Source of the DNA: Patescibacteria group bacterium
Lineage (GTDB): Bacteria; Patescibacteriota; Minisyncoccia; Phycocordibacterales; UBA2100
Length of the DNA stretch: 61,958 bases
Direction of reading: 5' to 3'
Assembly (NCBI GenBank): GCA_038064835.1
Contig: JBBTSD010000010.1
Coordinates: forward strand, 1 to 61,958
Position 1 is the first letter of the stretch, and every line of letters starts with the position of its first letter. The translations under genes and the position numbers were made by a program. This document shows, one piece after another, positions 6,719 through 61,568 of this stretch. A model generated the notes under the pieces. It had not been told where the DNA came from, made no database searches, and saw only the letters and a list, made by a program, of their open reading frames with translations.

Positions 6719-6719
6719 A

Positions 6720-37727: not shown

Positions 37728-40700
37728 CTATTCTAACATCAGATTTTCGCCTCCAAACGAAATAGTCCCCACCTGGGCAACCCGTGCGAGTTCGGTCCGT
37801 GCAAATTCAATACTCTCTCGCATACTTTCCGGAACCCGCAAGCGCGCCGGCTCCCCCGGCTTCAAACCCTTCTTTTTGCGTAGGTCTTGGACCGTACGCA
37901 GTACATCGCGCACTTCTCCCTCTCGCCTTAATTCGTCTGAAATGACTGTATCCAAACGCGCCGCATCTGCACTCTGTGTATCCACTACTACCTCTTTTAC
38001 ATTGAGCTCATCCTTCACAAGACCTAGCAGTTGTTCCGGAACAGCTGTTTTTATAGTGACCGATTGCAGAGGCTGACGGACTTTGATATTTGCTGCCGCC
38101 CGTGCTTCGAGCCCTACTGAAATAAGAAGCCGGATTTTTTTCATCTCCGCCAATAATTTTTGTTGGTCATTTGAAAGTGGCGTACTAGCAGGCCAGTCTG
38201 CAAGATGTACGCTCTCTTTCTCTCCCCCGAGTTCACGATAGATGTGTTCCGCCACAAATGGCATAAATGGCGCCGTAACTTTGGAAAATTCTCGCAGGAC
38301 ATAATGCAGTGTCCCCAACGCCGACGCCTTGTCAGTTTCGTCTTCCCCTTTCACCCTGTCGCGCGACCTGCGCACAAACCATGTTGAGAGGTCGTCGATG
38401 AAGTCTGCAAGCGGTCGTGCGGCACGGTCAACCTGGTACGCATCGAGAGCTCCTGAAACGGTGACGATGAGTTCTTGTAGCCGAGCAAGTATCCAACGAT
38501 CAAGGACCTGCGCACTCTCTCCAGACGGGGTGTGCGGGTATTCGCGGAACAGATTGTAAAACGAGAGTACATTAAGGAGACGGCCATTATTTTTCTTCAG
38601 AATCTCGTCTACCACTTTCTCGTCAAAATTTTTCGAAGCCCCCGGCTCGTTCACGGTAAACATCCAGTAACGAAGCGCGTCCACACCATACTTTGGAATC
38701 ATATCCCACGGCTTGATGACATTCCCGAGCGACTTTGACATTTTCTTGCCCTTGTCATCAAGCAAATGCCCGAGCGAAATGACATTTTTGTACGACATCC
38801 CTCGTCCCATCAAAACACCAATCGCATGAAGTGTGTAAAACCACCCGCGCGTCTGGTCGATTGCTTCAGAAATAAAGTCTGCAGGGTACCCCTTACCATC
38901 AACCCATTCTTTGTTTTCAAATGGGTAATGATCTTGGGCAAATGGCATGGCACCCGAGTCGAACCATACATCCATGACTTCCTGTATGCGCTCGTACTCT
39001 TCTCCTTCGTGAACGAGCTTTACTTCGTCGATAAACGGACGATGTACATCACATTCATATTCAGCGTTGTGTGGTAGTGGAGTAAAATCAAGCGTGCGAA
39101 TTTCTGCTGTTTTGAGGTAACTGTTTTTAACAATCTGAAGCGCTCGCTCTTTTGAAGCGCCTTCGGCCACAGCCGCGGCCATCCAAGTAGTATCTCCGTG
39201 CGCCACGATAAAGACCGTTTCGTTTTTATGCGATGCGTCAATGGTATAGAGAAATTCGCCAACACGACGGCGCACATCTCCCACACTCTCGCCACCATCC
39301 GGCTTGTTCTCAAATACAGAAGGTGTGTCTGGAAATGCCTGGTTGTACTCTTTGAGAGTTTTTCCCTCATAACTCCCGAGTGCAATTTCGGTCAGCCGCT
39401 TGTCGGTAACTACCCTCTCTGAAGGTACCCCCAGAACTTCAGCGACAATTTTTGCAGTCTCTTGAGTTCGCGTGAGTGGTGACACATAAATATAGTCGAC
39501 TTTCGGACCCTTGTAGGCAGTGGCAGCTGCACGAACTTCGTTCTTCCCTTTCTCGGTCAGCGAAATCTTCTTTGCAGGATCGGAGCTCAAAATACCTGAT
39601 GCATTTGATTCTGCATCACCATGACGCATCATGAAATACTGATTACTGGAACGGTTCGCCATTTTTTCACGGAGCTCCGAGAGAGACCCGACTACTAACA
39701 TTTTCCCTGTTTTGGAAAGCCAGATAGGTAGCGGTGTTCCCCAATAACGATTCCGACTTATCGCCCAGTCCTTTACTTCTTTAAGCCACTCTCCAAAACG
39801 CCCGTCGCGAATGTGCGCCGGTTCCCAGTGGATTTTTTGATTCTCCGTCATGAGCTCTGCACGGAGAGCCGACATACGGATATACCAGGAATCACGCGCA
39901 TAATAGATGAGCGGTCGCTTGCAACGCCAACAATGCGGGTACGCATGCGTTGTTTCTTCGGTTTTGAGCACCTTATCACCAAGCGCAACAATCACTTTCT
40001 CGTTCGCGTCCTTGACGAACACACCGGCAAATTCAATCACCGCATCGATAAATTTCCCTTCCTCATTCACCAAATGATGTTTCGGGAGACCGACCTTTGT
40101 GCCCATGTCGAAGTCTTCGGCACCGTACATAACAGCGGTATGCACAACTCCGGTACCGTCTTCAGTAGTTACAAAATCAGCAGCATATATCTTGTATGCA
40201 TTAGGAAGTTTGTCTTGTTGCTCTTTAGGAAGCGAGTCAACTAGATACGGAAAAAGAGGTTCATACACGCGCCCCACCAACTCACTCCCCTTTTTTTCTG
40301 CAATCACCGTAGCTCCTGCCAACACTGAAAGTCGTTCGGTTGCAACCCATATTTTTTTGTCAGCAATCTGTGTGAGTGAATATGAAATTTTATCACCTAC
40401 CGCGAGCGCCACATTCCCAGGGAGAGTCCACGGCGTTGTCGTCCACGCGGCAATATGTTCGTCGGAGTCGCGTAATTTGAAAGCCACGAATACCGATGTG
40501 TCAGTTACATCTTTGTATCCATCGGCAACTTCATGGGAAGACAATGGTGTGCCGCACCGAGCGCACCAGGGCACAACGCGGTAGTCTTTATAGAGAAGAC
40601 CTCGTTCGTGTACTTTTTGTACGATATGCCATACCGACTCTATGTATTCGTTTGCAAAAGTAAAATAGGTTTGTGAGTGATCAACCCAAAATCCAATACG

Positions 40701-41102
40701 GTCTGTAAAATCTTTCCATTCCCCGATATAGCGCAAAACGCTTTCCTTGCACTTCGCATTGAATTTTTCAACACCGTAGGCCTCGATATCCTTTTTGTTT
40801 TTTAGACCCAGCTCTTTTTCGACTTCAAGCTCGACAGGAAGTCCGTGCGTGTCCCATCCCGCTTTTCGGCGCACGCGAAACCCCTGCATGGTTTTATAGC
40901 GCGGAATAAGGTCTTTGAATGCGCGCGCTTCCAGGTGGTGAATTGCAGGATGGTTGTTTGCCGTTGGTGGCCCCTCATAGAAGACAAAGTCGCCTGCAGG
41001 CGCCTCTCTCTCGAGAGACTTTTTGAATATATCGTTTTCTTTCCAAAATTGTAGAGTCGCCTCCTCGCGGAGCGCTGTTTCACTCTTTGGTTTCTCTTCC
41101 AT
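37728..41102 (-). CDS. ileS: isoleucine--tRNA ligase with an inserted histidine-phosphatase domain
   Basis: The HIGH region is PPTANNHPAIHH. Editing-domain motifs TTTPWTLPGN and GTGVVHTA are present, along with WAISRNRYWGTPLPIW and the KMSKS motif. It is 1124 aa, about 190 aa longer than usual, because of an in-frame PGAM-like insert at residues ~487-680. Confidence 0.93.
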   Translation of the reverse strand: MEEKPKSETALREEATLQFWKENDIFKKSLEREAPAGDFVFYEGPPTANNHPAIHHLEARAFKDLIPRYKTMQGFRVRRKAGWDTHGLPVELEVEKELGLKNKKDIEAYGVEKFNAKCKESVLRYIGEWKDFTDRIGFWVDHSQTYFTFANEYIESVWHIVQKVHERGLLYKDYRVVPWCARCGTPLSSHEVADGYKDVTDTSVFVAFKLRDSDEHIAAWTTTPWTLPGNVALAVGDKISYSLTQIADKKIWVATERLSVLAGATVIAEKKGSELVGRVYEPLFPYLVDSLPKEQQDKLPNAYKIYAADFVTTEDGTGVVHTAVMYGAEDFDMGTKVGLPKHHLVNEEGKFIDAVIEFAGVFVKDANEKVIVALGDKVLKTEETTHAYPHCWRCKRPLIYYARDSWYIRMSALRAELMTENQKIHWEPAHIRDGRFGEWLKEVKDWAISRNRYWGTPLPIWLSKTGKMLVVGSLSELREKMANRSSNQYFMMRHGDAESNASGILSSDPAKKISLTEKGKNEVRAAATAYKGPKVDYIYVSPLTRTQETAKIVAEVLGVPSERVVTDKRLTEIALGSYEGKTLKEYNQAFPDTPSVFENKPDGGESVGDVRRRVGEFLYTIDASHKNETVFIVAHGDTTWMAAAVAEGASKERALQIVKNSYLKTAEIRTLDFTPLPHNAEYECDVHRPFIDEVKLVHEGEEYERIQEVMDVWFDSGAMPFAQDHYPFENKEWVDGKGYPADFISEAIDQTRGWFYTLHAIGVLMGRGMSYKNVISLGHLLDDKGKKMSKSLGNVIKPWDMIPKYGVDALRYWMFTVNEPGASKNFDEKVVDEILKKNNGRLLNVLSFYNLFREYPHTPSGESAQVLDRWILARLQELIVTVSGALDAYQVDRAARPLADFIDDLSTWFVRRSRDRVKGEDETDKASALGTLHYVLREFSKVTAPFMPFVAEHIYRELGGEKESVHLADWPASTPLSNDQQKLLAEMKKIRLLISVGLEARAAANIKVRQPLQSVTIKTAVPEQLLGLVKDELNVKEVVVDTQSADAARLDTVISDELRREGEVRDVLRTVQDLRKKKGLKPGEPARLRVPESMRESIEFARTELARVAQVGTISFGGENLMLE

Positions 41103-41196: not shown

Positions 41197-41928
41197 TTAT
41201 GCAGCCGCGATAGTCGCGACAGACTGGCTGACCTGGTTCAGTGCACGACGCACCTCGCGCGGATCAGCCTTTGGGGTGAGAATCTTCGAGATTCCCATCG
41301 CCCCGAAGAGGCTCGTATACCGGCCGACAGCTGATTCGTCTTCGGCGGCACCGATGCCGGTGATGTAGTCACCCTCGCTGATGATTGCGGCGAACTCGGG
41401 CGGCGAACCACTGTCACCAGCGGGCTCGTCATCCGTGAGGATGATCATTGCCACAGTGGTTTGGATTCCCTTGTCCCTCTGGACCTGCGCTTTCGCATGA
41501 AGGTCTGTGAGCAAGACAATCGAGTCGTGCACGATCGGGGTATTCGCCCGACCAGCCGCATAGGAATCGACAGCGTTCTCGGGAATGTCCCGAATCATGC
41601 CGTCGAAGTAGACATCTCCTTTGAAGCCGACACCCTTGATGTAGAAGTCGGCCCCTTTGGCGCCCCGAAAGGCGTTGATCGAGAGGGCCAGTCCTTCACG
41701 GATGGCGCCCTCCAATCCCCGGCCGGCAATAGATCCGGAGTTGTCGGCAAGAATACCGACAATCACCAGACGATCACGATTGGGCTGGACCAGCCCCCCT
41801 CCTACAGGAGTGGTGCTGCTCCCAGCGCGCTGACCGACTCGCTGGTAGTCCACCGGAGGTGGCGCACCTGCGCCAGAACCGGGAGCCTTCAGGAACTTGT
41901 CGAGGTCGACATGTGGTGCGTTGCTCAT
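41197..41928 (-). CDS. von Willebrand factor A (TerY-like) protein
   Basis: The MIDAS motif is DNSGS (ILADNSGSIAG), with downstream Thr (ANTPIV) and Asp (IILTDDEP). Its start overlaps the kinase stop (ATGA). Confidence 0.8.
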   Translation of the reverse strand: MSNAPHVDLDKFLKAPGSGAGAPPPVDYQRVGQRAGSSTTPVGGGLVQPNRDRLVIVGILADNSGSIAGRGLEGAIREGLALSINAFRGAKGADFYIKGVGFKGDVYFDGMIRDIPENAVDSYAAGRANTPIVHDSIVLLTDLHAKAQVQRDKGIQTTVAMIILTDDEPAGDSGSPPEFAAIISEGDYITGIGAAEDESAVGRYTSLFGAMGISKILTPKADPREVRRALNQVSQSVATIAAA

Positions 41929-43037
41929 GCTACTTTCTCCTTGGGTTGGGTTTCAGTCTGTCCGCGCGCCGCGACCGGCGTGCGATCTGCCCGTGCCTGC
42001 GGCACGGGAGATTCTACTGACCCGAACAGATTTCTGTCAGGCACAAATCGTTCACCATCGACGAACATGCGCTTGAATGCGTCATGGAACGGCGCAGGGA
42101 TTTGATTGAGTGGTCGTGCAGTCGCCGGGTATTTCACCGACTTATCGAAGACCGTGACCCGCCCCATAATTCGTTGAGGAAGATCCATGCCGTCAATAGT
42201 ACCTGCGTAGGGATCTGTGTATGTGAGCATACGCATGGCGATAACCATGAAGCTGTACCAATCGGTCAGTTCGGCGTGGGGTGCCACCAGGCAGAACTGC
42301 GCACCCAAGGGTGGCGTTACTGCCCAATGGTAGATATTCCCCGCCAGTCGTTTGAGGAACAGTTTTCTCAAGATGTGGGCAGTAACACGCCCAATCCCCT
42401 TCAAAATAGCCCTGCCATACTTGCCGGCTCGATTCGGATTGACCGTGCCGATTATTTCCGGCGCAGTGAAGCGTGGAGTAAATGCACGGCACAGAAACCC
42501 CGCATACTGCATCGAGTCGATCTCGATGAAGTGCGGCACCGCTCCTTTCCGTGAGACGATTACATTGAACTCATTTAAGTCACCTACAACCATGCCCTTC
42601 TGGTGAAGGGCACTGATCGTGTCGTGCATCTTGCCGAGCACTTCAAGCGCATACCCTTGGGGCAAATGCGCCTGAGGGCTCGTCATCGCGTCGATGGTAT
42701 ACCCGTCGACAAACGGCATGATATACCCCATCACAATCCCACTGGGGATTACGAGAACAGCGCTTGGCTGAACCACATTTTCGGGAAGCCCATCCGGAAT
42801 CTTGAACAGCTTTTGTTGCATGTCCGCAATACGGACCTTTGCCGCTTCCTGGAGCGGCTCCTGGCCGACGAGTTCGTCGCATCCGGGTGTATGGAATACT
42901 TTCGCGACAAGTCCCGGCTTCAAGCGATATACAACCGCCTCACCACCGCGACCGACCTCCTCAAACCTTCCTTGTTGCCATGAGGTAACCTCAACGCGGG
43001 GGATCTCTCCCATGTGTCCATCTCCTTTCTCAGACAT
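41925..43037 (-). CDS. atypical Hanks-type Ser/Thr protein kinase
   Basis: The Gly-rich loop is VGRGGEAVVY, followed by VAKVF (VAxK). The catalytic loop is VVGDLNEFNVIV (D..xxN) and the metal-binding motif is IEIDS. Its start overlaps the PP2C stop (TAATG). Confidence 0.75.
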   Translation of the reverse strand: MSEKGDGHMGEIPRVEVTSWQQGRFEEVGRGGEAVVYRLKPGLVAKVFHTPGCDELVGQEPLQEAAKVRIADMQQKLFKIPDGLPENVVQPSAVLVIPSGIVMGYIMPFVDGYTIDAMTSPQAHLPQGYALEVLGKMHDTISALHQKGMVVGDLNEFNVIVSRKGAVPHFIEIDSMQYAGFLCRAFTPRFTAPEIIGTVNPNRAGKYGRAILKGIGRVTAHILRKLFLKRLAGNIYHWAVTPPLGAQFCLVAPHAELTDWYSFMVIAMRMLTYTDPYAGTIDGMDLPQRIMGRVTVFDKSVKYPATARPLNQIPAPFHDAFKRMFVDGERFVPDRNLFGSVESPVPQARADRTPVAARGQTETQPKEKVA

Positions 43038-44257
43038 TACTTCTGCGACACTTTGGGTGGGGTGCCACTTTGTGGTGGATTCACCTTTTGTGTCGGTGGC
43101 GGTGCTGGAGGTGGAATGTAACTGACGATGTCCATTCCAACTGTCTGCAAGACGCGCACCATCCAGGTATCGTCAGAGGCAACGAATTTGTCGGCAAGCC
43201 GATTTCGTAGACGAGTTACCTCGTCCATCAATCGCTTGATGTCTTCAGCGGCCTTTCGCTCCGCCACTTCGCGGACTTGGCGCACACTTTCTGTACTACG
43301 CTTCGCAACCTCTATGTCTTCTCGCGACCTCTTGAGAGAAGCCTCGAGTCGATCGTTTTCTCTTTCGAGATCCTGGAAGTCAGTGCGTAGAGTTGCCAAC
43401 TCGCTCATGGTCGCATCAAAGCGACCTCTGAGCTCGGCAACCTCGTTCCGCTCCGCCTCGAGACGCATTTGCGCCTCGTTGGAACGCAGAATAAGTATGG
43501 TGGTATCGTCGCCGCACTTGCCAAAGGCAAATGCACCGTTGACAAAGCGCTCGGTCGCCTGGCTATCGAGCCAGCTCCTGAGCGCCCCTTCCTTCATCAA
43601 TCCCGGATGGTAGATACTCTCGTCGCCGATGAGCGATTCAACACCATCGGTACCAACGACTATACCTTTTTGTACACTTCCTAAACTGACTTCTGCAACC
43701 GGCACGAGTGCCAGATGCTTCTTCAGCTCGTCGGTGTGATATCCGGTCTTTTGGAGAAGTGCGTAGCCCAGATAGGGCGGCGCATTCAGCGTTGCGAGCG
43801 GCGGATCCATGTAGGTCGTTTTGCCATCAATGGCAAAAACGCCGTCTCCACACGCAGCGATAACGACCTGGTCATCGTAGGTCACCACCACAAGAGCGGT
43901 GAACAACAGATAGTCAGCGACCACCTGCTCGAACTCGGGAACACTGGACTCAGTCTTCCCGGTCAGCGTTTGCGCAATTTTGCGCAATTCATTTAGCGTG
44001 GCGCGAGTAATCCCCGGCCAATTGAGACTGACCCCGGCAGTATGATTGACTTGGCGCAGAACCTCTCCTGCGATAATGCGTGCGCCGATAGTGGCGCCCA
44101 CATCAGTGTGCGGACGAGAGCCACAGCCATCGCACAAAACGGCAACAATGCCATGATCGTGCTCGACGGCCGTGTACGCATCTTGGTTATTCTTCTTTCC
44201 ACCCTGTCCAGGCAGAACATGATCTGATCCAACGACACTTTCGATCGCGTAGTGCAT
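43037..44257 (-). CDS. PP2C-family Ser/Thr phosphatase with a C-terminal coiled coil and Pro-rich tail
   Basis: PP2C motifs: KKNNQDAY, AVLCDGCGS, ACGDGVFAIDG and VGTDGV. The C-terminal ~130 aa are heptad-like (EAERNEVAELRGRFDATMSELATLRTDFQDLERENDRLEASLKRS). The tail is PPPAPPPTQKVNPPQSGTPPK. The start is placed at ATG 44257, which has an AAAGGAAA RBS; the ORF-track GTG at 44302 remains possible. Confidence 0.8.
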   Translation of the reverse strand: MHYAIESVVGSDHVLPGQGGKKNNQDAYTAVEHDHGIVAVLCDGCGSRPHTDVGATIGARIIAGEVLRQVNHTAGVSLNWPGITRATLNELRKIAQTLTGKTESSVPEFEQVVADYLLFTALVVVTYDDQVVIAACGDGVFAIDGKTTYMDPPLATLNAPPYLGYALLQKTGYHTDELKKHLALVPVAEVSLGSVQKGIVVGTDGVESLIGDESIYHPGLMKEGALRSWLDSQATERFVNGAFAFGKCGDDTTILILRSNEAQMRLEAERNEVAELRGRFDATMSELATLRTDFQDLERENDRLEASLKRSREDIEVAKRSTESVRQVREVAERKAAEDIKRLMDEVTRLRNRLADKFVASDDTWMVRVLQTVGMDIVSYIPPPAPPPTQKVNPPQSGTPPKVSQK

Positions 44258-44365
44258 CCCATTTCCTTTCTTTTTGATTTTCGAAGAGCTGCGTGTTGCC
44301 ACACAGGTCTGATTGGAACCTACTATGATTTTTGCACTGTGTCAAGTTTCCGCCCGCCTTCGCTT

Positions 44366-46107: not shown

Positions 46108-46140
46108 AAAGACCGCCACTTGTGTAGTGGCGGCTCTTTT
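46108..46140 (-). terminator. hairpin terminator after tmk
   Basis: The GCCGCCAC/GTGGCGGC stem is flanked by A-rich and T-rich runs and overlaps the tmk stop. Confidence 0.55.
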
Positions 46141-46822
46141 ATGAAAAATCACATTGGAGTCGCACCAACTCCCACACTTTTTCATGAATAGCTTCCGGCG
46201 GGAGCAGTGCTCCTTCTGGAGCACATTCAACTACTTGCCACGCATCTTTCCGCGCAGAAGCAAGTTCGCGATAGCATGCCGCAACTCGCGCTTGATAAGA
46301 CATGTCTGCCTCATGCTGGTCTTTGGCCCCTTCCGCAATGTATGTCCGTGCAGCTTTTTGCTCCACCAACCTGAATGAAACCTCGACTGGCACGGAGAGA
46401 TAGAGTACCAATGTTGGCACCGGCATTCGTATCTCTTCATGTTCGACTGCTTCCACAAATTCAATGTAACGCTGTCGCTCGTCCGCATCTGCTATTTTTG
46501 CCGCGCCGTAGGCGAGATTGCTTGATATATAACGGTTACAAATAACAATATCTGCATCCGCCAATGCCGTCCTCATCTCGTCCCGCGCAGCTGCACGATC
46601 AAGCATGTATGGAATTGAGGCGAGGTATGGCGATGTCGCCAGAAAATCTCCATGCCGACCTGCGAGCACATCGCCAATAAGTTTTCCCGTGCGCTGACCA
46701 TAGCGAGGAAAATCAAACACTGTTGCTTTCAGTCCCCGTGCATCGCACCGGCTGCACAATAAAGCAACTTGCGTTCCTTTGCCTGCACCATCCGCACCGT
46801 CGACAACAATTAATCTGCTCAT
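46139..46822 (-). CDS. tmk: thymidylate (dTMP) kinase family
   Basis: The P-loop is VVDGADGAGKGTQ. The DRY-equivalent is CNRYISSNLAYG. A LID-region Arg is present. Confidence 0.85.
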   Translation of the reverse strand: MSRLIVVDGADGAGKGTQVALLCSRCDARGLKATVFDFPRYGQRTGKLIGDVLAGRHGDFLATSPYLASIPYMLDRAAARDEMRTALADADIVICNRYISSNLAYGAAKIADADERQRYIEFVEAVEHEEIRMPVPTLVLYLSVPVEVSFRLVEQKAARTYIAEGAKDQHEADMSYQARVAACYRELASARKDAWQVVECAPEGALLPPEAIHEKVWELVRLQCDFS

Positions 46823-46831
46823 AGTGTTCTC

Positions 46832-47386
46832 CTAGTCTCGCAGTAGTATATCGGCTAGTGAGTTGATTGCGCGAACACTATCATCGTGGTCATTGTGTGG
46901 TGCACGCATAAGAAATGCACGGTCAGTGACAGGGGTCGCGTCGCGCACATGTCGTGGATCATCGTCAACAAACACATTCGCACCGCGAATGTACTCGACC
47001 TTACTTTCATTGTGTCCAACACCCACGCACTCAAGTGGCGTCCCATGAGCAACAAGCCACCGCTCTGCATCCCTCAACATATCTCCCGTGCGTGCGGTCA
47101 CTACGCGTACCTGCACACCTTTTTCAGTCCACAGCGCAATGGTTTCTAATGATTCGGGATACGGTGCCAACTCTTGGATCGACAGAGGGTTCGTATATGC
47201 CTCGTTTTGTATATCACGATATTCATTGAGCGTGAGCGAGCTCTTCCCTGCTTCTATGCGGCCACTAGATAATTCGCCAGGTTCCACTGCGCGAGCGAGC
47301 ATTCGTTCAGCGATAGTTTTTTTAAGTGCCGCCGTGTCCGCGATGACGCCATCAAAATCAAGAACGATAAGGTGATTCATATTCAT
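46832..47386 (-). CDS. HAD-family 5'(3')-deoxyribonucleotidase-like protein
   Basis: Motif I is LDFDGVIAD, with VVTAR and VFVDDDP also present, and a C-terminal FLMRAPHND resembling NT5C/YorS-type enzymes. The start is placed at ATG 47386, because the ORF-track start is a TTG. Confidence 0.55.
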   Translation of the reverse strand: MNMNHLIVLDFDGVIADTAALKKTIAERMLARAVEPGELSSGRIEAGKSSLTLNEYRDIQNEAYTNPLSIQELAPYPESLETIALWTEKGVQVRVVTARTGDMLRDAERWLVAHGTPLECVGVGHNESKVEYIRGANVFVDDDPRHVRDATPVTDRAFLMRAPHNDHDDSVRAINSLADILLRD

Positions 47387-47428
47387 ATATTCATTAAAAC
47401 ATAGGACGGCCACCAAAGTGGCCGTACC

Positions 47429-48088
47429 CTACCCGTCTAGCCCCACATACTTCAGATTGCGGAACAACTCGGGCCGAAGGTTATTGTAGCGCTCTTCCCG
47501 CGGCGGCTTCGTATTCACAACACGCACCTGATCCCACTCATGAAGATCTGTAGGAAACCGTGCTGTCACTGGTTCCACAATAACCGTTTCAAGTGTCGTG
47601 CCAATCTGTTTTGCAAGATACATGCGATGTACCCCATCCAGCAAAACCCACCCACTAGGACCGCATTCGACAATAGGAGGCACATAATGCGCAATTGCCG
47701 ACACTCCTGTCTGTGTCTTTCCATAGGCAATACATGCCCCGAGTTTCGCCATGCCTCGTGCGACACAAAATGCACCGAACGACGCCTCGAAGCCTTCGAG
47801 AAATTGCTGGTACTTGCTTCGTTCGACAAATGTCTGCCCCAGACGAACAGCATGCGGGTCTACTCGAAGCGTAGTGATACGCGCGTGTTTGTACACATCT
47901 CCTCGCCCATCTGCAAGCGGCACTGCACACATTACTGCACGCAGATAATCGCGGCGCATAGGTTGAACACTTTCGATACTTGCGAGTTGACGCAATGACA
48001 CCACCTCACTACACTCTCCCGTTGTATGCGGGAGTACAGCAAGTCGCACCCGTGCAAGAAACTCATCTATGGGGATTGGATCAAACAT
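47429..48088 (-). CDS. ParB/Srx-fold domain protein
   Basis: The C-terminal half, YVPPIVECGPSGWVLLDGVHRMYLAKQIGTTLETVIVE, matches the ParB-like nuclease/NTPase core (P.iv....g.y.llDG.HR..A....G....v.v). Confidence 0.5.
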   Translation of the reverse strand: MFDPIPIDEFLARVRLAVLPHTTGECSEVVSLRQLASIESVQPMRRDYLRAVMCAVPLADGRGDVYKHARITTLRVDPHAVRLGQTFVERSKYQQFLEGFEASFGAFCVARGMAKLGACIAYGKTQTGVSAIAHYVPPIVECGPSGWVLLDGVHRMYLAKQIGTTLETVIVEPVTARFPTDLHEWDQVRVVNTKPPREERYNNLRPELFRNLKYVGLDG

Positions 48089-48198
48089 GTCCTGCCACCT
48101 TGTACATATACCTGCGCACAGTGTGGGTGCATATACACCCTGCTTCTAGACAACACCGGTTGCCTCAAGCGGACTTGACTCAAATCTGACCAGCGCGT

Positions 48199-48888
48199 AT
48201 GTATACTACATCTATGGAAATGCACATGATCCAACGACACATACTCCGTAGGCTCGCGTCTCACAAAACACTGCGTTATGGCGAAATGAAACCAGCCCAC
48301 ATCGAAGGCAACCAATTCAGCTACCACCTCAAGACCCTTATTCGTCTTGGTTTTGTTGCACACAAAGATCGCGGATACAACCTTTCTACCAAAGGTGTCC
48401 ACTACTCAACCCAGGTCAATTTCGAACATTTTTCGGTGCGTATCCAACCAAAAATAGCCACGCTTATTGTCTGCAAAAACAACGCGGGAAAATATCTTAT
48501 ATACACAAGAAACAAACAGCCGTTCATTGGTATGGACGGATTTCCGTACGGGAAGATCCACCTAGGGGAACGGATTGCCGTTGCCGCCAAGCGCGAGCTG
48601 CAGGAAAAAATCGGCATCAGTGCAAGGCTTGCTCACAAAGGAATGATGTATTTGGCAGTTACTGATCATGCGGGCGAAATGATTGCACACACCTTGTTCC
48701 ATGTGTTTTTGGGAACGACCGACAAAAACGGGGCTTCTACAGAATCCCCCTTGGGCCGTATCCGCTGGCTCAGTGAAAAAGAACTCCTCGCGCAGAATGT
48801 TATGCCCGGTGTCCCTGAGGCACTTAAGATGGCAAAAAGCACTTCGCGCTGCTTGGCATTTGAAGAATACGAATTCCAAGAAGGATGA
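48199..48888 (+). CDS. winged-helix + Nudix hydrolase fusion
   Basis: The N-terminal wHTH is ILRRLASHKTLRYGEMKP...NQFSYHLKTLIRLGFV. The Nudix box is GKIHLGERIAVAAKRELQEKIGI (Gx5Ex7REUxEExGU). Confidence 0.8.
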   Translation: MYTTSMEMHMIQRHILRRLASHKTLRYGEMKPAHIEGNQFSYHLKTLIRLGFVAHKDRGYNLSTKGVHYSTQVNFEHFSVRIQPKIATLIVCKNNAGKYLIYTRNKQPFIGMDGFPYGKIHLGERIAVAAKRELQEKIGISARLAHKGMMYLAVTDHAGEMIAHTLFHVFLGTTDKNGASTESPLGRIRWLSEKELLAQNVMPGVPEALKMAKSTSRCLAFEEYEFQEG

Positions 48889-48977
48889 AGGGCACGCGAT
48901 TCGTCCAGCGTAGTTACCTTGCGTGAACAAGGTGTGCGCCGTAGAGTGCGCACAGAAAATCTTTGAAAGGACAGATC

Positions 48978-49868
48978 ATGTACTTGCCGTATAGAAAGCG
49001 TACGCCCGATACTCAGTACCAGGAAGCACTCCGCTTCATCATGAAGTGTGGGGATATCCTAGAAACTCCGCAAGATGTACCTGCGCGCACCTGCTTCGGG
49101 GTATCGCCCCCTCTTGTGTATTTCCTACACAACGGTGCGCCCATCATCACCGAACGACAGATGGGATGGCGCGCGCCGATTGGTGAGATGTGTGCATTCA
49201 TCAACGGTGTGCAGGACTTTGCGGTGATGAAGTCGGAGTTTGGTGTTCCCGCTCCTTTTTGGGAGCCATGGGTGACCGAACAGAAATGCGCAAAAGTCGG
49301 TGCAGAGACAGGTCATTTAGGCGACGCCTCGTATGGACCGGCTCTTGCCGCATTCCCGATGTCTGACGGCCGCACTTTTGACCAGTTTGCCCATGTGGTG
49401 AACATGCTTTCGGACGCAAAGCTCCGGAAGCGACGCACCATCTATGCAACCGCTTGGATTCCATTCATGAATGGGTGGGGTGGAAACCAGCGTGCGGTCG
49501 TATCACCATGTCATGGCTTCATTCACTTTCGTGCCATTGGTAACAAACTTGACCTTGTGTCATGGCATCGCTCGGCTGATATGCCACTCGGTTTCCCGAA
49601 TGACATGATTGCATACACCGCGCTTCTGCTTGCGGTGGGACATCTCACCAAGCTCGCACCTCGGCGCATCATCTTTCAGCTGAGCGATGCGCATATCTAC
49701 GAGAATCAGGTCGAGGCGGTCCGCACGCTCGCGTATTCTGAGCCGCGTCGTCTGCCAACACTGACGCTGGTGCATGATATTCAAAACCTGCGCGAGCTCC
49801 GGAGAGAACATTTTGAACTCACGGACTATCACCCACACGCTCGGATGAACATCCCCACATCTGTGTAA
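48978..49868 (+). CDS. thymidylate-synthase (ThyA) family enzyme with Asp at the Asn177-equivalent position
   Basis: It aligns without gaps to E. coli ThyA from Cys146 to Tyr181: SPCHGFIHFRAIGNKLDLVSWHRSADMPLGFPNDMIAY. Cys146, Arg166, Ser167, Asp169, Gly173 and Pro175 are conserved, and position 177 is Asp. Also conserved: RRTIYATAW (R126/R127), FWEPW and DAHIY. The start at ATG 48978 follows an AAAGGA RBS. Confidence 0.85.
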   Translation: MYLPYRKRTPDTQYQEALRFIMKCGDILETPQDVPARTCFGVSPPLVYFLHNGAPIITERQMGWRAPIGEMCAFINGVQDFAVMKSEFGVPAPFWEPWVTEQKCAKVGAETGHLGDASYGPALAAFPMSDGRTFDQFAHVVNMLSDAKLRKRRTIYATAWIPFMNGWGGNQRAVVSPCHGFIHFRAIGNKLDLVSWHRSADMPLGFPNDMIAYTALLLAVGHLTKLAPRRIIFQLSDAHIYENQVEAVRTLAYSEPRRLPTLTLVHDIQNLRELRREHFELTDYHPHARMNIPTSV

Positions 49869-49877
49869 GGAGGATAT

Positions 49878-50333
49878 ATGACCGTCAACTTTGACCATGC
49901 GCGCGACGACGAGCAGCGCCGTCGCATGCAACGCGCACTCGACACTGGAGAATGTCTCTTGTGTCGCGAAAATATCGAGCGCTACCATGACCGTCCAATT
50001 CTATTGGAGGGCGCCTACTGGCTTGTAACTGAAAATGCTTTTCCGTACGAAGGCGCAACACTGCACCATTTGGTGGTGTATACCAGGGGTCATGAAACTG
50101 ACTTTCGTGCCATACCCCCCGAGGCATGGACAGAGCTCCAGGTACTACTTAGTTCTGTTGCCGACACACACGGTGTTTCAGGTGGCTCGCTCGTGATGCG
50201 CTTTGGTGACACGAAAATCACCGGCGCCACATTGGCACACCTGCACGCACATCTCATTGTCGGTGAACCTTTCGCAGACAAACGAAATGAATCTCTTCGT
50301 GTAAAAGTTGGATACAAGAAGGCCTCGGGATAA
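49878..50333 (+). CDS. HIT-family nucleotide hydrolase/transferase
   Basis: The histidine triad is AHLHAHLIVG. A perfect AAGGAGG RBS lies 6 nt upstream. Confidence 0.8.
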   Translation: MTVNFDHARDDEQRRRMQRALDTGECLLCRENIERYHDRPILLEGAYWLVTENAFPYEGATLHHLVVYTRGHETDFRAIPPEAWTELQVLLSSVADTHGVSGGSLVMRFGDTKITGATLAHLHAHLIVGEPFADKRNESLRVKVGYKKASG

Positions 50334-50346
50334 TCCGAGGCCTTTT
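50321..50346 (+). terminator. terminator overlapping the HIT stop codon
   Basis: GGCCTCGGGATAATCCGAGGCCTTTT. The TAA stop (50331-50333) sits in the loop. Confidence 0.8.
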
Positions 50347-50350
50347 CTTA

Positions 50351-50506
50351 TACCATCTCCAATTAACGCTCCGACACTAATACATTCTTGAATTTTGAGC
50401 GAGAAACGAGTCGGAGCGCAAGTCATATCGAGATATGGCGAGCGCGAGACGAAGTTTTGCAGCCTAAATTCAAGAATGTATGTGGGATGGCTAATTGGAG
50501 ATGGTA
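50351..50506. mobile_element. MITE-like palindromic element, copy 2 (156 bp)
   Basis: Termini are TACCATCTCCAATTAACGCTCCG (left) and, read as the reverse complement, TACCATCTCCAATTAGCCATCCC (right). An inner inverted pair is ACATTCTTGAATTT (50382-50395) and AAATTCAAGAATGT (50466-50479). TTA flanks both ends directly (50348-50350 and 50507-50509); the second is the stop codon of the minus-strand deaminase gene. Confidence 0.6.
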
Positions 50507-51370
50507 TTACACCACATACACAAGCTCTACACCCGCGCTCTTCAGTACATCAGGGGTGTTAAGCCCGTAACTTCCAGAACTGAAGAAGAGTTTCTTGATA
50601 CCTGCGCGTGCAACAATCTTGGCGCACGGTTCGCATGGGAATGTGGTGATATGAAGGTCACACCCTTCTGTCCGCACACCTCTGCGTGCCGCCTCGGCAA
50701 CAAGCACCGATTCGGCATGTTCGGCAGTGCTCGTCTCGATCATCTGTCCGCTTTTAAAAAGCGACCGAGGATCGCCATACACATAGGGCATTTGTTCATG
50801 AGGCACATGTGTATTATGTGCAACTAAAAGCACTTCCCCATCTCGACTCAAGACAGCGCCTACTTGCCGCCACCAATCGCCGCTTTTTACGGATTCGCCA
50901 CCCGCAATCTTGAGAAGCTCTCTGTCACGGAATGCGCTTGAGACAGTGAAGTCCGCAACTAGTGATGCGTCTTCTCGTGCCTGTACGCGCTGTCTATCGA
51001 ACCGCAGGAAAAAAGGTGAGAAAGACACTACTTTTCCGGGAAGGAATTTCTCGGCAAAAGCGTGCGACACATCTTCGTCCGGCATGGTAACGAGAGATGT
51101 GGATGCCTGGATCAGTGGGATTGTTTCTTCGTCGAGTACGCACACCGCAATCCTTTTTGAAAGAGTGCCGAGAGCTCGTGCCATTACTTCAGTTGGCACA
51201 GCCCGTACGACATCTTTCCGCACCACATATTCCAACTCGACACCAAGGTGCGAGACAATATCCGGCAACAGCAGATACAGTGTTTTGAGAGAAAAACCGC
51301 ACTGCTCGATGAACCGCATGTACCCACGATGAAGCACCGGCACATAGGCAATAGCAACGGTATCACTCAT
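50507..51370 (-). CDS. dCMP deaminase (CDA fold) with an unrecognised ~130-aa N-terminal domain
   Basis: The C-terminal zinc motifs are TAEHAESVLVAEAARRG and TTFPCEPCAKIVARAGIKKLFF. The N-terminal segment IAYVPVLHRGYMRFIEQ may be a degenerate HxGH nucleotidyltransferase-like motif. Confidence 0.8.
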   Translation of the reverse strand: MSDTVAIAYVPVLHRGYMRFIEQCGFSLKTLYLLLPDIVSHLGVELEYVVRKDVVRAVPTEVMARALGTLSKRIAVCVLDEETIPLIQASTSLVTMPDEDVSHAFAEKFLPGKVVSFSPFFLRFDRQRVQAREDASLVADFTVSSAFRDRELLKIAGGESVKSGDWWRQVGAVLSRDGEVLLVAHNTHVPHEQMPYVYGDPRSLFKSGQMIETSTAEHAESVLVAEAARRGVRTEGCDLHITTFPCEPCAKIVARAGIKKLFFSSGSYGLNTPDVLKSAGVELVYVV

Positions 51371-52011
51371 GTCGAATCTCCTTCTTTCTTTCCACTTACC
51401 GTCGAAAGCGTATCTTGAAGAATGCGCGGGATTTCATCTTGGAGACGCTTGGCGAAAGCCTCGAGCCCATCAATCATCATGAGCCGCAACCGTGCTGTTG
51501 TACCCTTCTGTGACTGTGCCTCAAGCACATGAAGTTCACCACAGTACTCCTTCATGCCTTTGATCTCGTCCTCTTTATGTTCGCTTGTGTGCGACACAAT
51601 GAGCACGTGCGGGCGAACCGCCTTGAGCAGTTCCCATTTGGGTGCGTCAACGTGTTTGAGCACCACCAGATTTACATACCGCAAGTGCGCAAGCATCACC
51701 ATTCGTTCGTCTTCACCAACGATTGGGCGAAACTTGCCTTTGCGTTTCTTGACCTTGGCGTCTGAGTCAACACCGACCACCAAAAATGTCCCGCGCTCGC
51801 GCGCTCGCGACAGGTACTCAGCATGTCCGGTATGGACCAAGTCCCATGTACCCGATGTGAGCACAATCTTTTGACCGAGCATCTTCGCGGCTTCCACAAT
51901 GCGGGCAACCTCGTCGATATCTCGTTTGATGCGCTCTGCGCAGTTTGCCTCGGTACCGAGGACACCGCCATAAACGCCCATGCGTCCATGCTCCTTTTTC
52001 ACAACACTCAT
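51367..52011 (-). CDS. cytidylyltransferase-family (TagD / RfaE-domain-II-like) nucleotidyltransferase
   Basis: LTSGTWDLVHTGHAEYLSRARERGTFLVVGVDSD is the (T/H)xGH motif in a Rossmann context. Its stop overlaps the deaminase start (ATGA). Confidence 0.75.
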   Translation of the reverse strand: MSVVKKEHGRMGVYGGVLGTEANCAERIKRDIDEVARIVEAAKMLGQKIVLTSGTWDLVHTGHAEYLSRARERGTFLVVGVDSDAKVKKRKGKFRPIVGEDERMVMLAHLRYVNLVVLKHVDAPKWELLKAVRPHVLIVSHTSEHKEDEIKGMKEYCGELHVLEAQSQKGTTARLRLMMIDGLEAFAKRLQDEIPRILQDTLSTVSGKKEGDST

Positions 52012-52132
52012 AGCTTCTCCTTAGATAACACGCGTATGCCCTTGCACACAAAGTCAAATTCATTGTACTCAAGTGTTCTTCCCCTAGACGCGCTCCTGCG
52101 CTACCATACCGAAAGGGACGGAGAGCAAGTCA

Positions 52133-52633
52133 ATGCTTCATGGTAAAAAAATCTCGATTATTGTCGCCTGTACTCCTGCGTGGGTTATTGGTTACAAAAA
52201 CACGATTCCCTGGAAAGCGCCTGCTGACCTTGCTCGGTTCAAACGCCTTACCATGGGCCACGATGTGGTGATGGGGCGTACGACATACGACTCCATTATC
52301 GCGAAATTAAAAAAACCACTTCCTGGGCGCCACACCATTGTGGTGACTCGGAATAGCTGTCTCGGCAGTAACACGGACCGTACCATTGCACATTCGTTTG
52401 ATGAAGCTGTTTTGCAAGCCCGAGGCGACGAAGTGTTTGTTGCTGGAGGTGCCGAGATATACAAGTTGGCACTTCCCCACGCCGACACCCTGCATCTCAC
52501 GCTCGTCTATACAAAAACTTTAGGCGATACGCACTTCCCTTGGTGGAACTCTGATGAATGGCATCTTGTCATCGAGCGCACTGATCCTGGAAGCACTCCG
52601 CAGACCAAATACATTCAGTACAAACGAACCTAA
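52133..52633 (+). CDS. folA: dihydrofolate reductase
   Basis: ISIIVA...VIGYKNTIPWKAPADLARFKRLTMGHDVVMGRTTYDSI...RHTIVVTRN...VFVAGGAEIY. Confidence 0.9.
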   Translation: MLHGKKISIIVACTPAWVIGYKNTIPWKAPADLARFKRLTMGHDVVMGRTTYDSIIAKLKKPLPGRHTIVVTRNSCLGSNTDRTIAHSFDEAVLQARGDEVFVAGGAEIYKLALPHADTLHLTLVYTKTLGDTHFPWWNSDEWHLVIERTDPGSTPQTKYIQYKRT

Positions 52634-58586: not shown

Positions 58587-59141
58587 CTAGCCGCGATACA
58601 TCGGCGGCTCTTCGGTTTTCCCCGCACGGTGATTTGCAAGTCGCGCGAGCGCATACAAGAGCGACGACAGACGATTTAAATAGGCGCGCGTATATTCGCC
58701 CAAAACACGCCCATCTTCGTGAGCGGCAGTGGCTCGGCGTTCGGCTCGGCGCGAAATAGTACGCGCCACATCAAAGAGAGCTCCGAGGCGTGTCGCCCCT
58801 GGGACAAAAAAGCTTTTAATGGGTGGTAGCTCCTGTTCGACCGCATGAATCAACACTTCCATTTTTTTGACACTTTCTTCAGGGATTGTTTTGGGTGAGC
58901 CAGCGAGTTCTGCTTGGGCAGTGAAAAGATGATCCTGGACCTCACGGAGTATTTCTGCCGCGCTTCGCCCTTCAAGGACAAGCGCCCGCGCCTCTTCTTC
59001 TGAGCGACAAAGGCCAAGGAAGGAATTGCACTCGTCGAGTGTGCCGAGTGCTTCCGATGCGACCGAACTTTTCGACATGCGTTGCTTACACCCAAAAGTG
59101 GTGGTTGTACCGTCGTCTCCTTTCCCAGTAAAGAGCACCAT
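58587..59141 (-). CDS. PduO-type ATP:cob(I)alamin adenosyltransferase family protein
   Basis: The N-terminus FTGKGDDGTTTTFG...RMSKSSVASEALGTLDECNSFLGL matches the y.TrtGD.G.T.l..g.r..K...r.ea.G..DEln pattern. Confidence 0.75.
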   Translation of the reverse strand: MVLFTGKGDDGTTTTFGCKQRMSKSSVASEALGTLDECNSFLGLCRSEEEARALVLEGRSAAEILREVQDHLFTAQAELAGSPKTIPEESVKKMEVLIHAVEQELPPIKSFFVPGATRLGALFDVARTISRRAERRATAAHEDGRVLGEYTRAYLNRLSSLLYALARLANHRAGKTEEPPMYRG

Positions 59142-60464: not shown

Positions 60465-61568
60465 CTAGACTCTTAATATTTTTAGAAGCTCCGAGAATAT
60501 GTAGACACTTTCTCTACCCTGCCCATCATATTCCTTTAATACACCTGCTTCTACAAATTTAGCTATCAGATTATAGGTCGTTCCCTTACTGCTTGCTTTA
60601 ATAGCTTCTCGTACATTTGCAGCCGTTATAATCGGGCTTTTAAAGATAGCGTCTAAAACAGCTATTGCGTGCTGTGATCTTATTTTCCCCACAACATCCT
60701 CTTTCAAGCGCTCGTAGAGTGCCTGTATTTCTTTTGCCATGACAGTTGTTCGTTTTGCTTGAAACTCAACAGCGATAAGAAAGAATTTAAGCCACGGTAT
60801 CCATTCTTGGTCTGTATCTACGGCATGCAAAAGACGCTGATACTCCACCTTGTGTTCTTCAAGGTGATGGCTGATAAACAACACGGGCGTTTGCAAGACT
60901 CTCTCTTGGCACAAGAACAAGGGTATGACGAGGCGTCCAATTCTTCCATTGCCGTCCATGAATGGGTGAATCGCCTCAAATTGATAGTGCGCAACTCCTA
61001 TCCTGACCAATACATCAGTTTCAGCATCTGAGTTTAGATATTTCTCCCAATTACTCATCAGACCAGAAATATCTGTATGCACAGGCGGTATATAATCACC
61101 CACCCTCACTTGCTCTTTTCTAAAGTTTCCACGATCTTTATTTGCTCCTCTCACCGAATCAAGAAGAACACTGTGGGTAGCTTTGAGAAGAGTTTCGGCG
61201 ATAGGACGCTCTTTTAATTTTTTTAAAGCAACACTCATTGCCTGTTCGTAATTCATAACCTCTTTGATGTCTTGAACCTTCCGACTCATCTCTTCTTTTT
61301 CGGGGTTAGCTTTTGATTCATCCAAGGCTTCATATTTGAGAACCTCTTCAAGAGTTGCTCGTGTACCTTCTATGGCTGAACTAGCGACAGCCTCCCTTTT
61401 TCTAAAGGGAGCAATCAAAAGATCGGGATTTGGTATTGCGTCTAAAAATCCTCTTAACTCACCGACCGCCGCGTGAGCGGCAGTAAGCTCTCTCATTAGA
61501 GGTTCATATGAGAGTTTGGGCGGGAGTTCTTTTACCTTTGTTGGTTTTATTTCTTTTGATTCCGACAT
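60465..61568 (-). CDS. Fic family protein (AMPylase/adenylyltransferase-type)
   Basis: The Fic motif is HPFMDGNGRIGRL. A C-terminal wHTH-like segment is present. The gene looks AT-richer than its neighbours by eye. Confidence 0.88.
   Translation of the reverse strand: MSESKEIKPTKVKELPPKLSYEPLMRELTAAHAAVGELRGFLDAIPNPDLLIAPFRKREAVASSAIEGTRATLEEVLKYEALDESKANPEKEEMSRKVQDIKEVMNYEQAMSVALKKLKERPIAETLLKATHSVLLDSVRGANKDRGNFRKEQVRVGDYIPPVHTDISGLMSNWEKYLNSDAETDVLVRIGVAHYQFEAIHPFMDGNGRIGRLVIPLFLCQERVLQTPVLFISHHLEEHKVEYQRLLHAVDTDQEWIPWLKFFLIAVEFQAKRTTVMAKEIQALYERLKEDVVGKIRSQHAIAVLDAIFKSPIITAANVREAIKASSKGTTYNLIAKFVEAGVLKEYDGQGRESVYIFSELLKILRV

Follow-up and report, generated by a model that had tools for sequence, protein, structure and literature searches.

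Replacement of Asn177 with Asp turns thymidylate synthase (TS) into a deoxycytidine monophosphate (dCMP) methylase, and Asp177 marks the cytosine-modifying TS homologues of phages (PMC8670742). Five of the seven phage Asp177 homologues tested, in addition to that of phage Xp12, make 5-methyl-dCMP (5mdCMP); the dCMP-deaminase-family enzymes encoded nearby are selective for 5-methylcytosine (5mC) and yield thymidine nucleotides, bypassing a second TS, and the criterion for such a phage pair is an Asp177 TS homologue no more than 3 kb from a dCMP-deaminase-family gene (bioRxiv 10.1101/2024.12.05.627091). In TS itself, the C-terminal tail, Trp80, Trp83, a hydrophobic residue at position 143, and Asp169 seal the active site for hydride transfer, features that are missing in the hydroxymethylase (PMC6400193). 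In this study, we have analyzed a 6.5-kb stretch (positions 46139 to 52633) of contig JBBTSD010000010.1 from a Patescibacteria bacterium, in which a ThyA homologue with Asp177 lies next to a gene of the dCMP deaminase family. The whole stretch of DNA that was analyzed, 61,958 nucleotides, is referred to as the window, and this ~62 kb is the portion of the genome covered. Residues of the ThyA homologue are numbered as in Escherichia coli ThyA unless the numbering of the open reading frame (ORF) is given.

We propose that the 6.5-kb stretch is a chromosomal thymidylate-synthesis island of a groundwater bacterium of the candidate phyla radiation (CPR), Paceibacteria/Kaiserbacteria-like, that it is composed of two blocks of genes, and that it would supply thymidylate by methylating a deoxycytidine nucleotide first and deaminating it second. 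For these elements taken jointly, we estimate a probability of about 0.45, slightly short of even odds. DNA of the island has been detected in groundwater metagenomes, and the homologues of its products are named as belonging to metagenome-assembled genomes of Paceibacterota, Kaiserbacteria, and other Patescibacteria. The island is flanked by argS on one side and rplK-nusG-secE on the other, and the rest of the window is that of an ordinary small-genome chromosome, with genes for FtsK, RecA, EF-P, several aminoacyl-tRNA synthetases, ribosomal proteins, and TatD. An earlier note on this DNA had proposed that the region was dedicated to deoxypyrimidine metabolism; this view holds, and the genome is of the reduced, symbiont type found in the CPR. 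Families were assigned by Pfam and NCBIfam profile searches of the window ORFs. For the synteny survey, the surroundings of genes related to the ThyA homologue were taken from GTDB species genomes (80 loci), and relatives of all nine proteins were located in them; L-numbers (L001 to L104) denote loci of relatives, and P-numbers denote homologous proteins.

The ThyA homologue matches PF00303 across residues 18 to 300 of its ORF and falls below every NCBIfam TS equivalog cutoff (best score, 125.8 bits versus 327; TIGR03284, 103.4 versus 108.35). Its catalytic cysteine is Cys183 of the ORF (codon 49509-49511), and when 120 homologue clusters were aligned with E. coli ThyA, Cys146, Glu58, Tyr94, Asp169, His207, and Tyr209 were invariant. 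The Asp at position 177 that the earlier note had reported was confirmed as Asp214 of the 301-residue ORF (codon 49602-49604), and His202 occupies the position of E. coli Gln165. Asp177 is shared by the window protein and the 37 clusters closest to it (identity of 53% or more), and Asn is present in the following 82; correspondingly, the 38 nearest clusters read WHRSxD..G[FL]xND and the next 82 QRS.D..N. In a neighbor-joining tree of the 69 nearest homologues, the Asp177 group is monophyletic and is the sister of an Asn-type CPR group, with the window protein in a basal subclade. Across the Asp177 clade the pocket has changed in concert (L163S, Y164W, Q165H, F176N, and N177D), and the resulting Asn176-Asp177 dyad is that of the T4 dCMP hydroxymethylase gp42 ("RND").

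Despite this shared dyad, membership in the gp42 family was rejected: in BLASTP comparisons, E. coli ThyA was matched over the full length (E = 1e-30) and gp42 over 71 residues (E = 0.011), and the TS C-terminal tail is present. The C terminus aligns residue for residue with that of E. coli ThyA, and Trp80, Trp83, Asp169, Glu58, and Tyr94 are kept, with Val in place of Leu143. Since these hydride-transfer features of TS are retained and a FolA-family ORF occurs in most of the Asp177-clade loci examined (L002 to L008, L082, and L100), the ThyA homologue is predicted from its residues to be a dCMP C5-methyltransferase that produces dihydrofolate (DHF), rather than a hydroxymethylase. Compared with bacterial ThyA (EC 2.1.1.45), dihydrofolate reductase (DHFR), and dCMP deaminase (ComEB/DCTD), the window shares the full-length fold, the catalytic residues, the tail, the accompanying FolA, deaminase, and Tmk, and the housekeeping position; it differs in Asp177, His165, and Asn176, in the CPR-wide replacement of Arg21 and Arg127, and in scoring below the NCBIfam equivalogs. 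The two arginines are among the four that bind phosphate in the E. coli enzyme, and their loss is common to Asn-type and Asp-type members of the entire CPR ThyA clade: position 127 is Thr (in a few cases Ser or Ile) in 120 of 120 homologues (P0001 to P0120), and position 21 is mostly Pro or Gln, Arg being kept in 14 of 120. Compensation could come from an Arg that directly precedes Arg126.

A distance of 639 bp separates the ThyA stop codon from the deaminase gene downstream, so that the two genes are within the 3-kb distance of the Xp12-type pairs. The deaminase part of the protein is the C-terminal domain (window 50507-50920), which contains the zinc motifs HAE and PCEPC; the PF00383 domain corresponds to the C-terminal 120 residues of the 287-residue protein. 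The closest solved structures are the dCMP deaminases of T4, PBCV-1, S-TIM5, S. mutans, and human (1vq2, 7fh4, 4p9c, 2hvv, and 2w4l), and the score for the NCBIfam ComEB equivalog is 37 versus a cutoff of 219. The earlier note had described the protein as an extended dCMP deaminase. The extension is indeed present, and it is a separate domain with a nucleotidyltransferase fold of the HIGH type (approximately residues 1 to 150; window 50921-51370; mean model confidence [pLDDT], 87.6), whose top Foldseek matches are HldC, NMNAT, the cytidylyltransferase domain of Fom1, and PPAT. Its HxGY motif is conserved but degenerate, and the domain looks like a degenerate copy of the neighboring nucleotidyltransferase (NTase). 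More than 385 two-domain homologues of the same length were found in the CPR. The identification of this protein as an anti-phage dCTP deaminase, i.e., a defense protein, was rejected: the PADLOC and NCBIfam matches cover only the zinc motif, approximately 55 residues (NCBIfam, 58 bits versus a cutoff of 400; PADLOC, positions 431 to 485 of 630), and do not extend to the N-terminal kinase-like region of such proteins.

Within the Asp177 clade, the deaminases differ from those that accompany Asn-type synthases. The two-domain enzyme is kept in the basal subclade (window, L082, L100, and L104), and all four two-domain deaminases linked to an Asp177 TS contain GSYGLN about 25 residues after PCxxC. 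In the other two-domain deaminases, the Tyr is one position earlier (114 of 115) and Asp stands for Asn (100 of 115), so that most read G-Y-[AS]-x-L-D; GYATLD is found in L102, whose TS was verified as being of the Asn type. In all eight crown loci of the clade (L001 to L008), the deaminase is of another kind, with a single domain and a Cys-rich insert, and in L005 (5467-6681) it is fused to an HD/YfbR-like 5'-deoxynucleotidase. A change of deaminase along with the synthase would be anticipated for an enzyme that follows the synthase in the pathway and takes a 5-methyl-dC nucleotide as its substrate. No phage relatives were found either of the N-terminal domain of the two-domain deaminase or of the crown-clade deaminase. 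A cellular housekeeping clade of Asp177 TS proteins with coadapted deaminases appears to be new, and both the GSYGLN-type and the crown-type enzymes are candidate 5mC-selective deaminases of biotechnological interest. The crown deaminases are 184 to 213 residues long and have CxxC in place of PCxxC (e.g., L003:11918-12559). A parallel to "SYxxN" in the T4 deaminase Cd came from one HMMER alignment, depended on gap placement, and was not relied on.

The window thus shares with the Xp12-type pair of dCMP methyltransferase and mSCD an Asp177 TS less than 1 kb from a dCMP-deaminase-family gene (bioRxiv 10.1101/2024.12.05.627091), and the predicted chemistry is the same: a dC nucleotide would be methylated and then deaminated to a T nucleotide. 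It differs in its context, which is cellular and part of a syntenic core genome. A phage or prophage origin was rejected, as no phage ThyA homologue exceeds ~30% identity, the flanks are core genes, the synteny is kept across CPR chromosomes, the crown-clade deaminase has no phage match, and only the C-terminal domain of the window deaminase matches phage dCMP deaminases (~31%). When phages were searched by tblastn with the ThyA homologue, td was matched and gene 42 was not.

The nine ORFs of the earlier note were all recovered, at the positions and on the strands it had given, and its family names proved correct, eight by profile (HIT only weakly, with its motif) and the ninth (ParB/Srx) by a structural model, a DGxHR motif, and weak matches of its homologues to PF24392. 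The features of the island are as follows.

46139..46822, minus strand: Tmk, dTMP kinase, 227 residues (PF02223, E = 8e-21); last gene of the orf219-NT5C-tmk unit.
46832..47416, minus strand: NT5C-like HAD-family 5'-deoxyribonucleotidase, 194-residue ORF (PF06941, E = 5e-9).
47429..48088, minus strand: ParB/Srx-fold protein (orf219), 219 residues (AlphaFold/Foldseek; DGxHR motif).
48199..48888, plus strand: winged helix-turn-helix (wHTH)-Nudix protein, 229-residue ORF (PF00293, E = 3.5e-10); first plus-strand gene, divergent from orf219.
48963..49868, plus strand: ThyA homologue, 301-residue ORF (PF00303, E = 5e-43).
49878..50333, plus strand: HIT-family protein, 151 residues (weak PF01230 match; CxxC and HLHAHLI triad).
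50312..50351, no strand assigned: hairpin with 17-nucleotide arms, candidate bidirectional terminator (inverted repeat I1, 82% complementary).
50507..51370, minus strand: two-domain deaminase, 287 residues (PF00383 on residues 168 to 264).
51367..52011, minus strand: RfaE-II/TagD-like NTase, 214 residues (PF01467, E = 2.7e-15).
52133..52633, plus strand: FolA, dihydrofolate reductase, 166 residues (PF00186, E = 8e-45).

Database gene calls place three of the starts further downstream: that of ThyA at ATG 48978 (296 residues; the probable start), that of the Nudix protein at 48226 (220 residues), and, in one of two contigs, that of NT5C at 47386 (184 residues). The NTase gene overlaps the start of the deaminase gene by 4 bases, which suggests translational coupling. 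The hairpin begins within the 3' end of the HIT gene (stop, 50333) and extends into the gap between the convergent HIT and deaminase genes; terminator-like sites were modestly more common than in shuffled sequence (13 versus 6.9 ± 2.3). Promoter-like sites were at least as common after shuffling of the sequence, and a search of the two divergent gaps for operator-like inverted repeats returned none.

The nine genes are two separately conserved blocks. Block A consists of the wHTH-Nudix gene and, divergent from it, the ParB/Srx-NT5C-Tmk genes; block B consists of the ThyA-like and HIT genes, the NTase and NTase-like-deaminase genes, and folA. The earlier note had treated all nine as a single cluster and had suggested synteny in relatives as a check. 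The ThyA-HIT-NTase(-deaminase-FolA) part of that linkage recurs in the 80 related loci, and the nine genes are not linked throughout: a Nudix, ParB/Srx, or NT5C gene was found near ThyA in 0 of the 80 loci, and Tmk was matched in 1 of 80, at a distance of 9.4 kb. A single conserved nine-gene unit was rejected on this evidence.

Block B is a functional unit that extends across the CPR. In 78 of the 80 loci (66 of the 67 in which the sequence suffices), HIT and ThyA are no more than 2.5 kb apart, the ThyA being mostly an ordinary Asn177 protein; the NTase lies within 4 kb in 67, the window-type deaminase is present in 35, and FolA is present in 22. In Paceibacteria-type loci, block B is located between argS and rplK, as it is in the window, and in relatives the slot between argS and ThyA contains genes for serine hydroxymethyltransferase, dUTPase, MazG, an HD/YfbR-like nucleotidase, a deoxynucleoside monophosphate (dNMP) kinase-like protein, Tmk, or 5-formyltetrahydrofolate cyclo-ligase. 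In Saccharibacteria-type loci, ThyA, NTase, and HIT follow one another on one strand among other neighbors, and argS and rplK are absent. The linkage of ThyA, NTase, and HIT survives this rearrangement and is therefore functional rather than an inherited position.

Block A is conserved only in close relatives. The Nudix|ParB/Srx-NT5C-Tmk-ArgS linkage recurs in L093, L094, and L095, three further contigs from two other organisms, in which the Nudix and ParB/Srx proteins are 58 to 70% identical to those of the window; Tmk is conserved beside NT5C and argS in L094, and the NT5C-ParB/Srx pair occurs with MazG in L098. In L094, block A stands beside a canonical ThyA (Asn177, Gln165, and Arg126-Arg127), FolA, a dCTP-deaminase-family gene, and a ParB-CE paralogue, and the block B module has been replaced. 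That paralogue, among the block A neighbors at L094:1357-2788, is 23% identical to orf219.

The HIT and NTase proteins had been regarded as extra genes without a role in ordinary thymidylate synthesis. Across the CPR, however, they accompany Asn177 ThyA, and fusions join them to DHFR, ThyA, or the deaminase; because of these fusions and the synteny, they belong to normal CPR thymidylate metabolism and are not signs of hypermodification. The HIT protein of the window scores 18.7 bits against a Pfam cutoff of 21.5, a weak match, and has the HLHAHLI motif; fused relatives score 25 to 28 bits. An exhaustive search with the window HIT protein, from which the 150 nearest representatives at 50% identity were taken, returned 30 DHFR-HIT fusions (305 to 337 residues; among P0304 to P0445) and one HIT-ThyA fusion (P0424, 464 residues, with an Asn-type ThyA and the triad HLHGQLV). 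Tandem HIT-HIT proteins also occur in this subfamily. Directly 3' of an Asn-type ThyA, Saccharibacteria-type loci carry an NTase-deaminase fusion (315 to 321 residues) followed by HIT (L033, L051, L057, L061, and L073 to L079), and triple NTase-deaminase-HIT fusions (480 to 494 residues) are located just 3' of an Asn-type ThyA in L028, L037, L040, L042, L058, L063, L065, and L067. The NTase of the window has an intact HTGH motif and, as the C-terminal (S/T)TT-type motif of the HIGH-motif nucleotidyltransferases, KGTTAR in its translation. Its best NCBIfam match is RfaE domain II (109 bits versus a cutoff of 181.5), TIGR00125 is matched at 54 bits versus 27.7, and the specific equivalog cutoffs for RfaE-II and TagD were not reached in this search; matches in the PDB are ethanolamine-phosphate and glycerol-3-phosphate cytidylyltransferases and HldC.

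From these arrangements, we infer that the NTase, deaminase, and HIT proteins together deliver a pyrimidine monophosphate from a cytidine deoxynucleotide, with a net effect like that of Dcd/Dut. The probable net function would be similar to that of dCTP deaminase or bifunctional Dcd-Dut, and L094 has a canonical ThyA and a DCD-family gene where the module would otherwise stand; the folds are unrelated (a CDA-fold deaminase, a HIGH-motif NTase, and HIT), and the proposed equivalence derives from this gene replacement only. Physical fusion within the thymidylate cycle is also known from protozoa and plants, whose DHFR-TS is bifunctional, but in the CPR the fused partner is HIT (DHFR-HIT and HIT-ThyA) or NTase-deaminase(-HIT), of which no description was found in the literature search. 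These fusions, like the deoxynucleoside triphosphate (dNTP) set of T4, suggest a multienzyme complex. In the textbook pathway, the additional NTase-fold domain of the deaminase and the HIT and NTase partners have no counterpart. A literature search on the TS-HIT-NTase-deaminase module and on DHFR-HIT fusions returned nothing relevant, and the CPR-wide coupling of TS, DHFR, and deaminase with HIT and an RfaE-II-like NTase appears to be new. As near-constant partners of ThyA, fused to DHFR, ThyA, and deaminase, the two families point to an unrecognized thymidylate step or complex in a large group of uncultured bacteria, and the link would provide a function for two groups whose present annotation is only generic, this HIT subfamily and the RfaE-II-like NTase.

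Block A is proposed to be a lineage-specific unit that manages the dNMP pool. Tmk matches the NCBIfam dTMP kinase models below their cutoffs and has the P-loop GADGAGKGT in its translation, and the NT5C protein has the HAD motif I DFDGV (DxDxV); NT5C adjoins the ParB/Srx gene in the window, L093, L094/L095, and L098. For orf219 itself, Pfam, NCBIfam, and the PDB gave no direct profile or sequence match. Its 58 CPR homologues have an invariant D151-G152-x-H154-R155 (DGxHR; DGVHR in the window), PF24392 ("ParB CE domain") is weakly matched in 24 of 37 homologues, and the top Foldseek matches of its AlphaFold model (pLDDT, 94) are all ParB/Srx proteins, with modest E-values of 0.005 to 0.1: Atu1540, sulfiredoxin, CTP-bound ParB, and phage ParB/Srx proteins. 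The model and the motif support its assignment as a ParB/Srx-fold protein, of a CPR-specific family distantly related to the Pfam "ParB CE domain." It shares the fold and the DGxHR motif with the ParB/Srx superfamily (ParB CTPases, sulfiredoxin, and Atu1540) and differs in an N-terminal extension of ~100 residues and in having no DNA-binding HTH. The proposal that orf219 is a constant partner of thymidylate genes was borne out only in part: its gene adjoins that of NT5C in four lineages, and more distant homologues are found in unrelated contexts (L089, L091, and L096). One of these, at L091:6428-7660, is directly 3' of a Phage_30_3 gene (T4 gene 30.3-like), between secA and an esterase gene.

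In the wHTH-Nudix protein, PF00293 covers residues 85 to 201 and a weak DUF7347 wHTH match covers residues 14 to 68. Compared with the complete Nudix box, GX5EX7REUXEEXGU, its box, GKIHLGERIAVAAKRELQEKIG, has Lys in place of the last Glu of REUXEE, as do those of L093 and L094; these orthologues are 64 to 70% identical, and their genes have the same divergent orientation. Given the wHTH and the loss of this catalytic Glu from each of the three proteins, the window protein is probably, judging from its residues, a regulator of the divergent operons rather than a dCTPase. Regulators of the NrtR type likewise combine a wHTH with a degenerate Nudix box. The domain order of NrtR is the reverse of that in the window protein, whose wHTH is N terminal.

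The proposed pathway would begin with the conversion of dCTP or dCDP to dCMP, for which the NTase-HIT unit is a candidate. The Asp177 synthase, going by its residues, would then methylate dCMP to 5mdCMP with oxidation of methylenetetrahydrofolate to DHF, from which FolA would regenerate tetrahydrofolate. The adjacent deaminase would convert 5mdCMP to dTMP, as the covariation and the phage precedent suggest, and Tmk would phosphorylate dTMP to dTDP; the NT5C and ParB/Srx proteins may trim the dNMP pool. The order as a whole would be that of phage Xp12, methylate first and deaminate second, and dUMP would be avoided. Tmk lies directly upstream of the Asp-type TS in L005 and is also present in the window island, which fits dTMP as the end product. 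If the Asp177 clade does methylate dCMP, it would provide the first known cellular examples of this order, which has to date been observed only in phages and among engineered N177D/N229D mutants; such a route would avoid the dUMP/dUTP pool and would raise the question of whether 5-methyl-dC nucleotides reach DNA.

Several points weigh against this proposal. The substrate specificity of the synthase is deduced from few residues, and a second thyA or thyX may lie outside the window. The covariation of the deaminases represents only one or two evolutionary events and is confounded with phylogeny, and the direct support for the role suggested for HIT and the NTase is limited to linkage. His147 is kept, whereas position 147 differs in the phage cytosine-modifying TS homologues. 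A dUTPase gene is located beside the Asp177 TS in L082, L004, and L007, which implies that dUMP is still made there and might still be a substrate. The last two points also favor an enzyme that is still a dUMP-methylating TS or has dual specificity, with the deaminase making dUMP and FolA recycling DHF. We consider this unlikely, despite the synteny of the window locus with Asn177 loci that have the same partners, the conservation of all other catalytic residues, and the origin of the window deaminase in the same two-domain family as the Asn-linked deaminases. Asp177 is fixed throughout the clade, as are Q165H and F176N at the two sites that hold residue 177 in position; replacement of Asn177 by Asp is the classical switch to dCMP (PMC8670742); and the deaminases have changed in step with it. 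A further point against methylate-first thymidylate synthesis is that the only characterized 5mC-selective phage deaminase acts on 5mdCTP and not on 5mdCMP (bioRxiv 10.1101/2024.12.05.627091). With the triphosphate as substrate, a pool of 5mdCTP would have to exist, and 5mC might then be incorporated into DNA. It can be envisioned that, in a cellular modification like that of Xp12, 5mdCMP is phosphorylated and incorporated, 5mC replaces cytosine partly or wholly, and part of the pool is deaminated to T nucleotides. The gene pair is the same as that of phages with fully 5mC-substituted DNA (bioRxiv 10.1101/2024.12.05.627091), and kinases (Tmk in the window; dNMP-kinase-like proteins in L001/L002) and nucleoside triphosphate pyrophosphatases (Nudix in the window; MazG in L006) are encoded near Asp-clade synthases. 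The GC content of the crown Asp-clade loci (29 to 41%) is a weak point in its favor, confounded by phylogeny, and that of the window is 50%. No dCTP-excluding enzyme is evident, the Nudix box being degenerate, and neither a glycosyl- or other transferase nor a modification-dependent nuclease was found among the window ORFs scanned; we regard such a modification system as quite improbable. Across the Asn-type loci, GC content ranges from 25 to 59%, and with few loci and phylogenetic confounding it is uninformative as a proxy for 5mC.

The presence of 5mC in the chromosome is a live possibility that is compatible with, and not exclusive of, methylate-first thymidylate synthesis. Alternatively or in addition to the replacement of cytosine by 5mC, the TS/DHFR/HIT/NTase/deaminase module could work on a nucleotidyl-conjugated (carrier-linked) pyrimidine in place of free dUMP or dCMP; this would explain the two lost phosphate-binding arginines, the NTase, which could load the conjugate, and HIT, which could release it. 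That 5mC extensively replaces cytosine in a cellular chromosome after a methylate-first rewiring, that the module uses a carrier-linked pyrimidine, or both, has in our view a slim chance. Least credible, and very unlikely, is a hydroxymethylated or hypermodified deoxypyrimidine of the T4 or MilA kind, or a nucleotide-derived small molecule, with HIT, NTase, and ParB/Srx proteins as tailoring enzymes. Asp177 is also a hallmark of the dCMP and CMP hydroxymethylases (PMC6400193), several nucleotidyl-transfer enzymes are clustered here, and the window shares with T4 gp42 and its dNTP set (gp56, gp1, Cd, Frd, and Td) the Asn-Asp dyad at 176-177 and a clustered deaminase, DHFR, and kinase. Against this likeness, gp42 has neither the C-terminal tail nor the Trp83/Leu143 gate (PMC6400193), and the window protein has both the tail and a Trp/Leu-type water-excluding gate; the similarity to gp42 is marginal (E = 0.011), linkage to FolA implies that DHF is produced, HIT and the NTase accompany Asn177 TS across the CPR, the locus belongs to a core chromosome with conserved synteny, and no glucosyltransferase was found among the window ORFs scanned. 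The correspondence with T4 that the earlier note had drawn is weak: the synthase is of the TS type and not the gp42 type, and is a predicted methylase rather than a hydroxymethylase. The kinase is an ordinary Tmk by Pfam and NCBIfam, and a gp56-like dCTPase activity of the Nudix protein is considered unlikely given the conserved Glu-to-Lys change and the wHTH. Its suggestion of a modified deoxypyrimidine survives in a changed form, in which the Asp177 clade and the covarying deaminases point to a 5-methyl-dC intermediate.

Some further features of the window lie outside the island. A PduO-type cobalamin adenosyltransferase (58587-59141, minus strand) possibly serves a B12-dependent ribonucleotide reductase, and a Fic/DOC-family protein is encoded at 60465-61568 (minus strand). 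Four large ORFs, all on the minus strand (2370-3968, 4079-6850, 15663-19133, and 34454-36415; 532, 923, 1,156, and 653 residues, respectively), have no Pfam match or marginal ones (lamin-tail and peptidoglycan-binding) and are probably CPR surface proteins. Upstream of argS, an apparent three-gene unit (41197-44302, minus strand) encodes a 243-residue protein with no assigned family, a RIO/protein-kinase-like protein of 370 residues, and a PP2C phosphatase of 421 residues with a long coiled-coil and Pro-rich tail. A separate His_Phos_1 protein is encoded at 32162-32971. In the isoleucyl-tRNA synthetase (37728-41102, minus strand; 1,124 residues), a His_Phos_1 domain is inserted at residues 490 to 657 (E = 7e-37), and a relative has the same architecture (L093:6966-10340).

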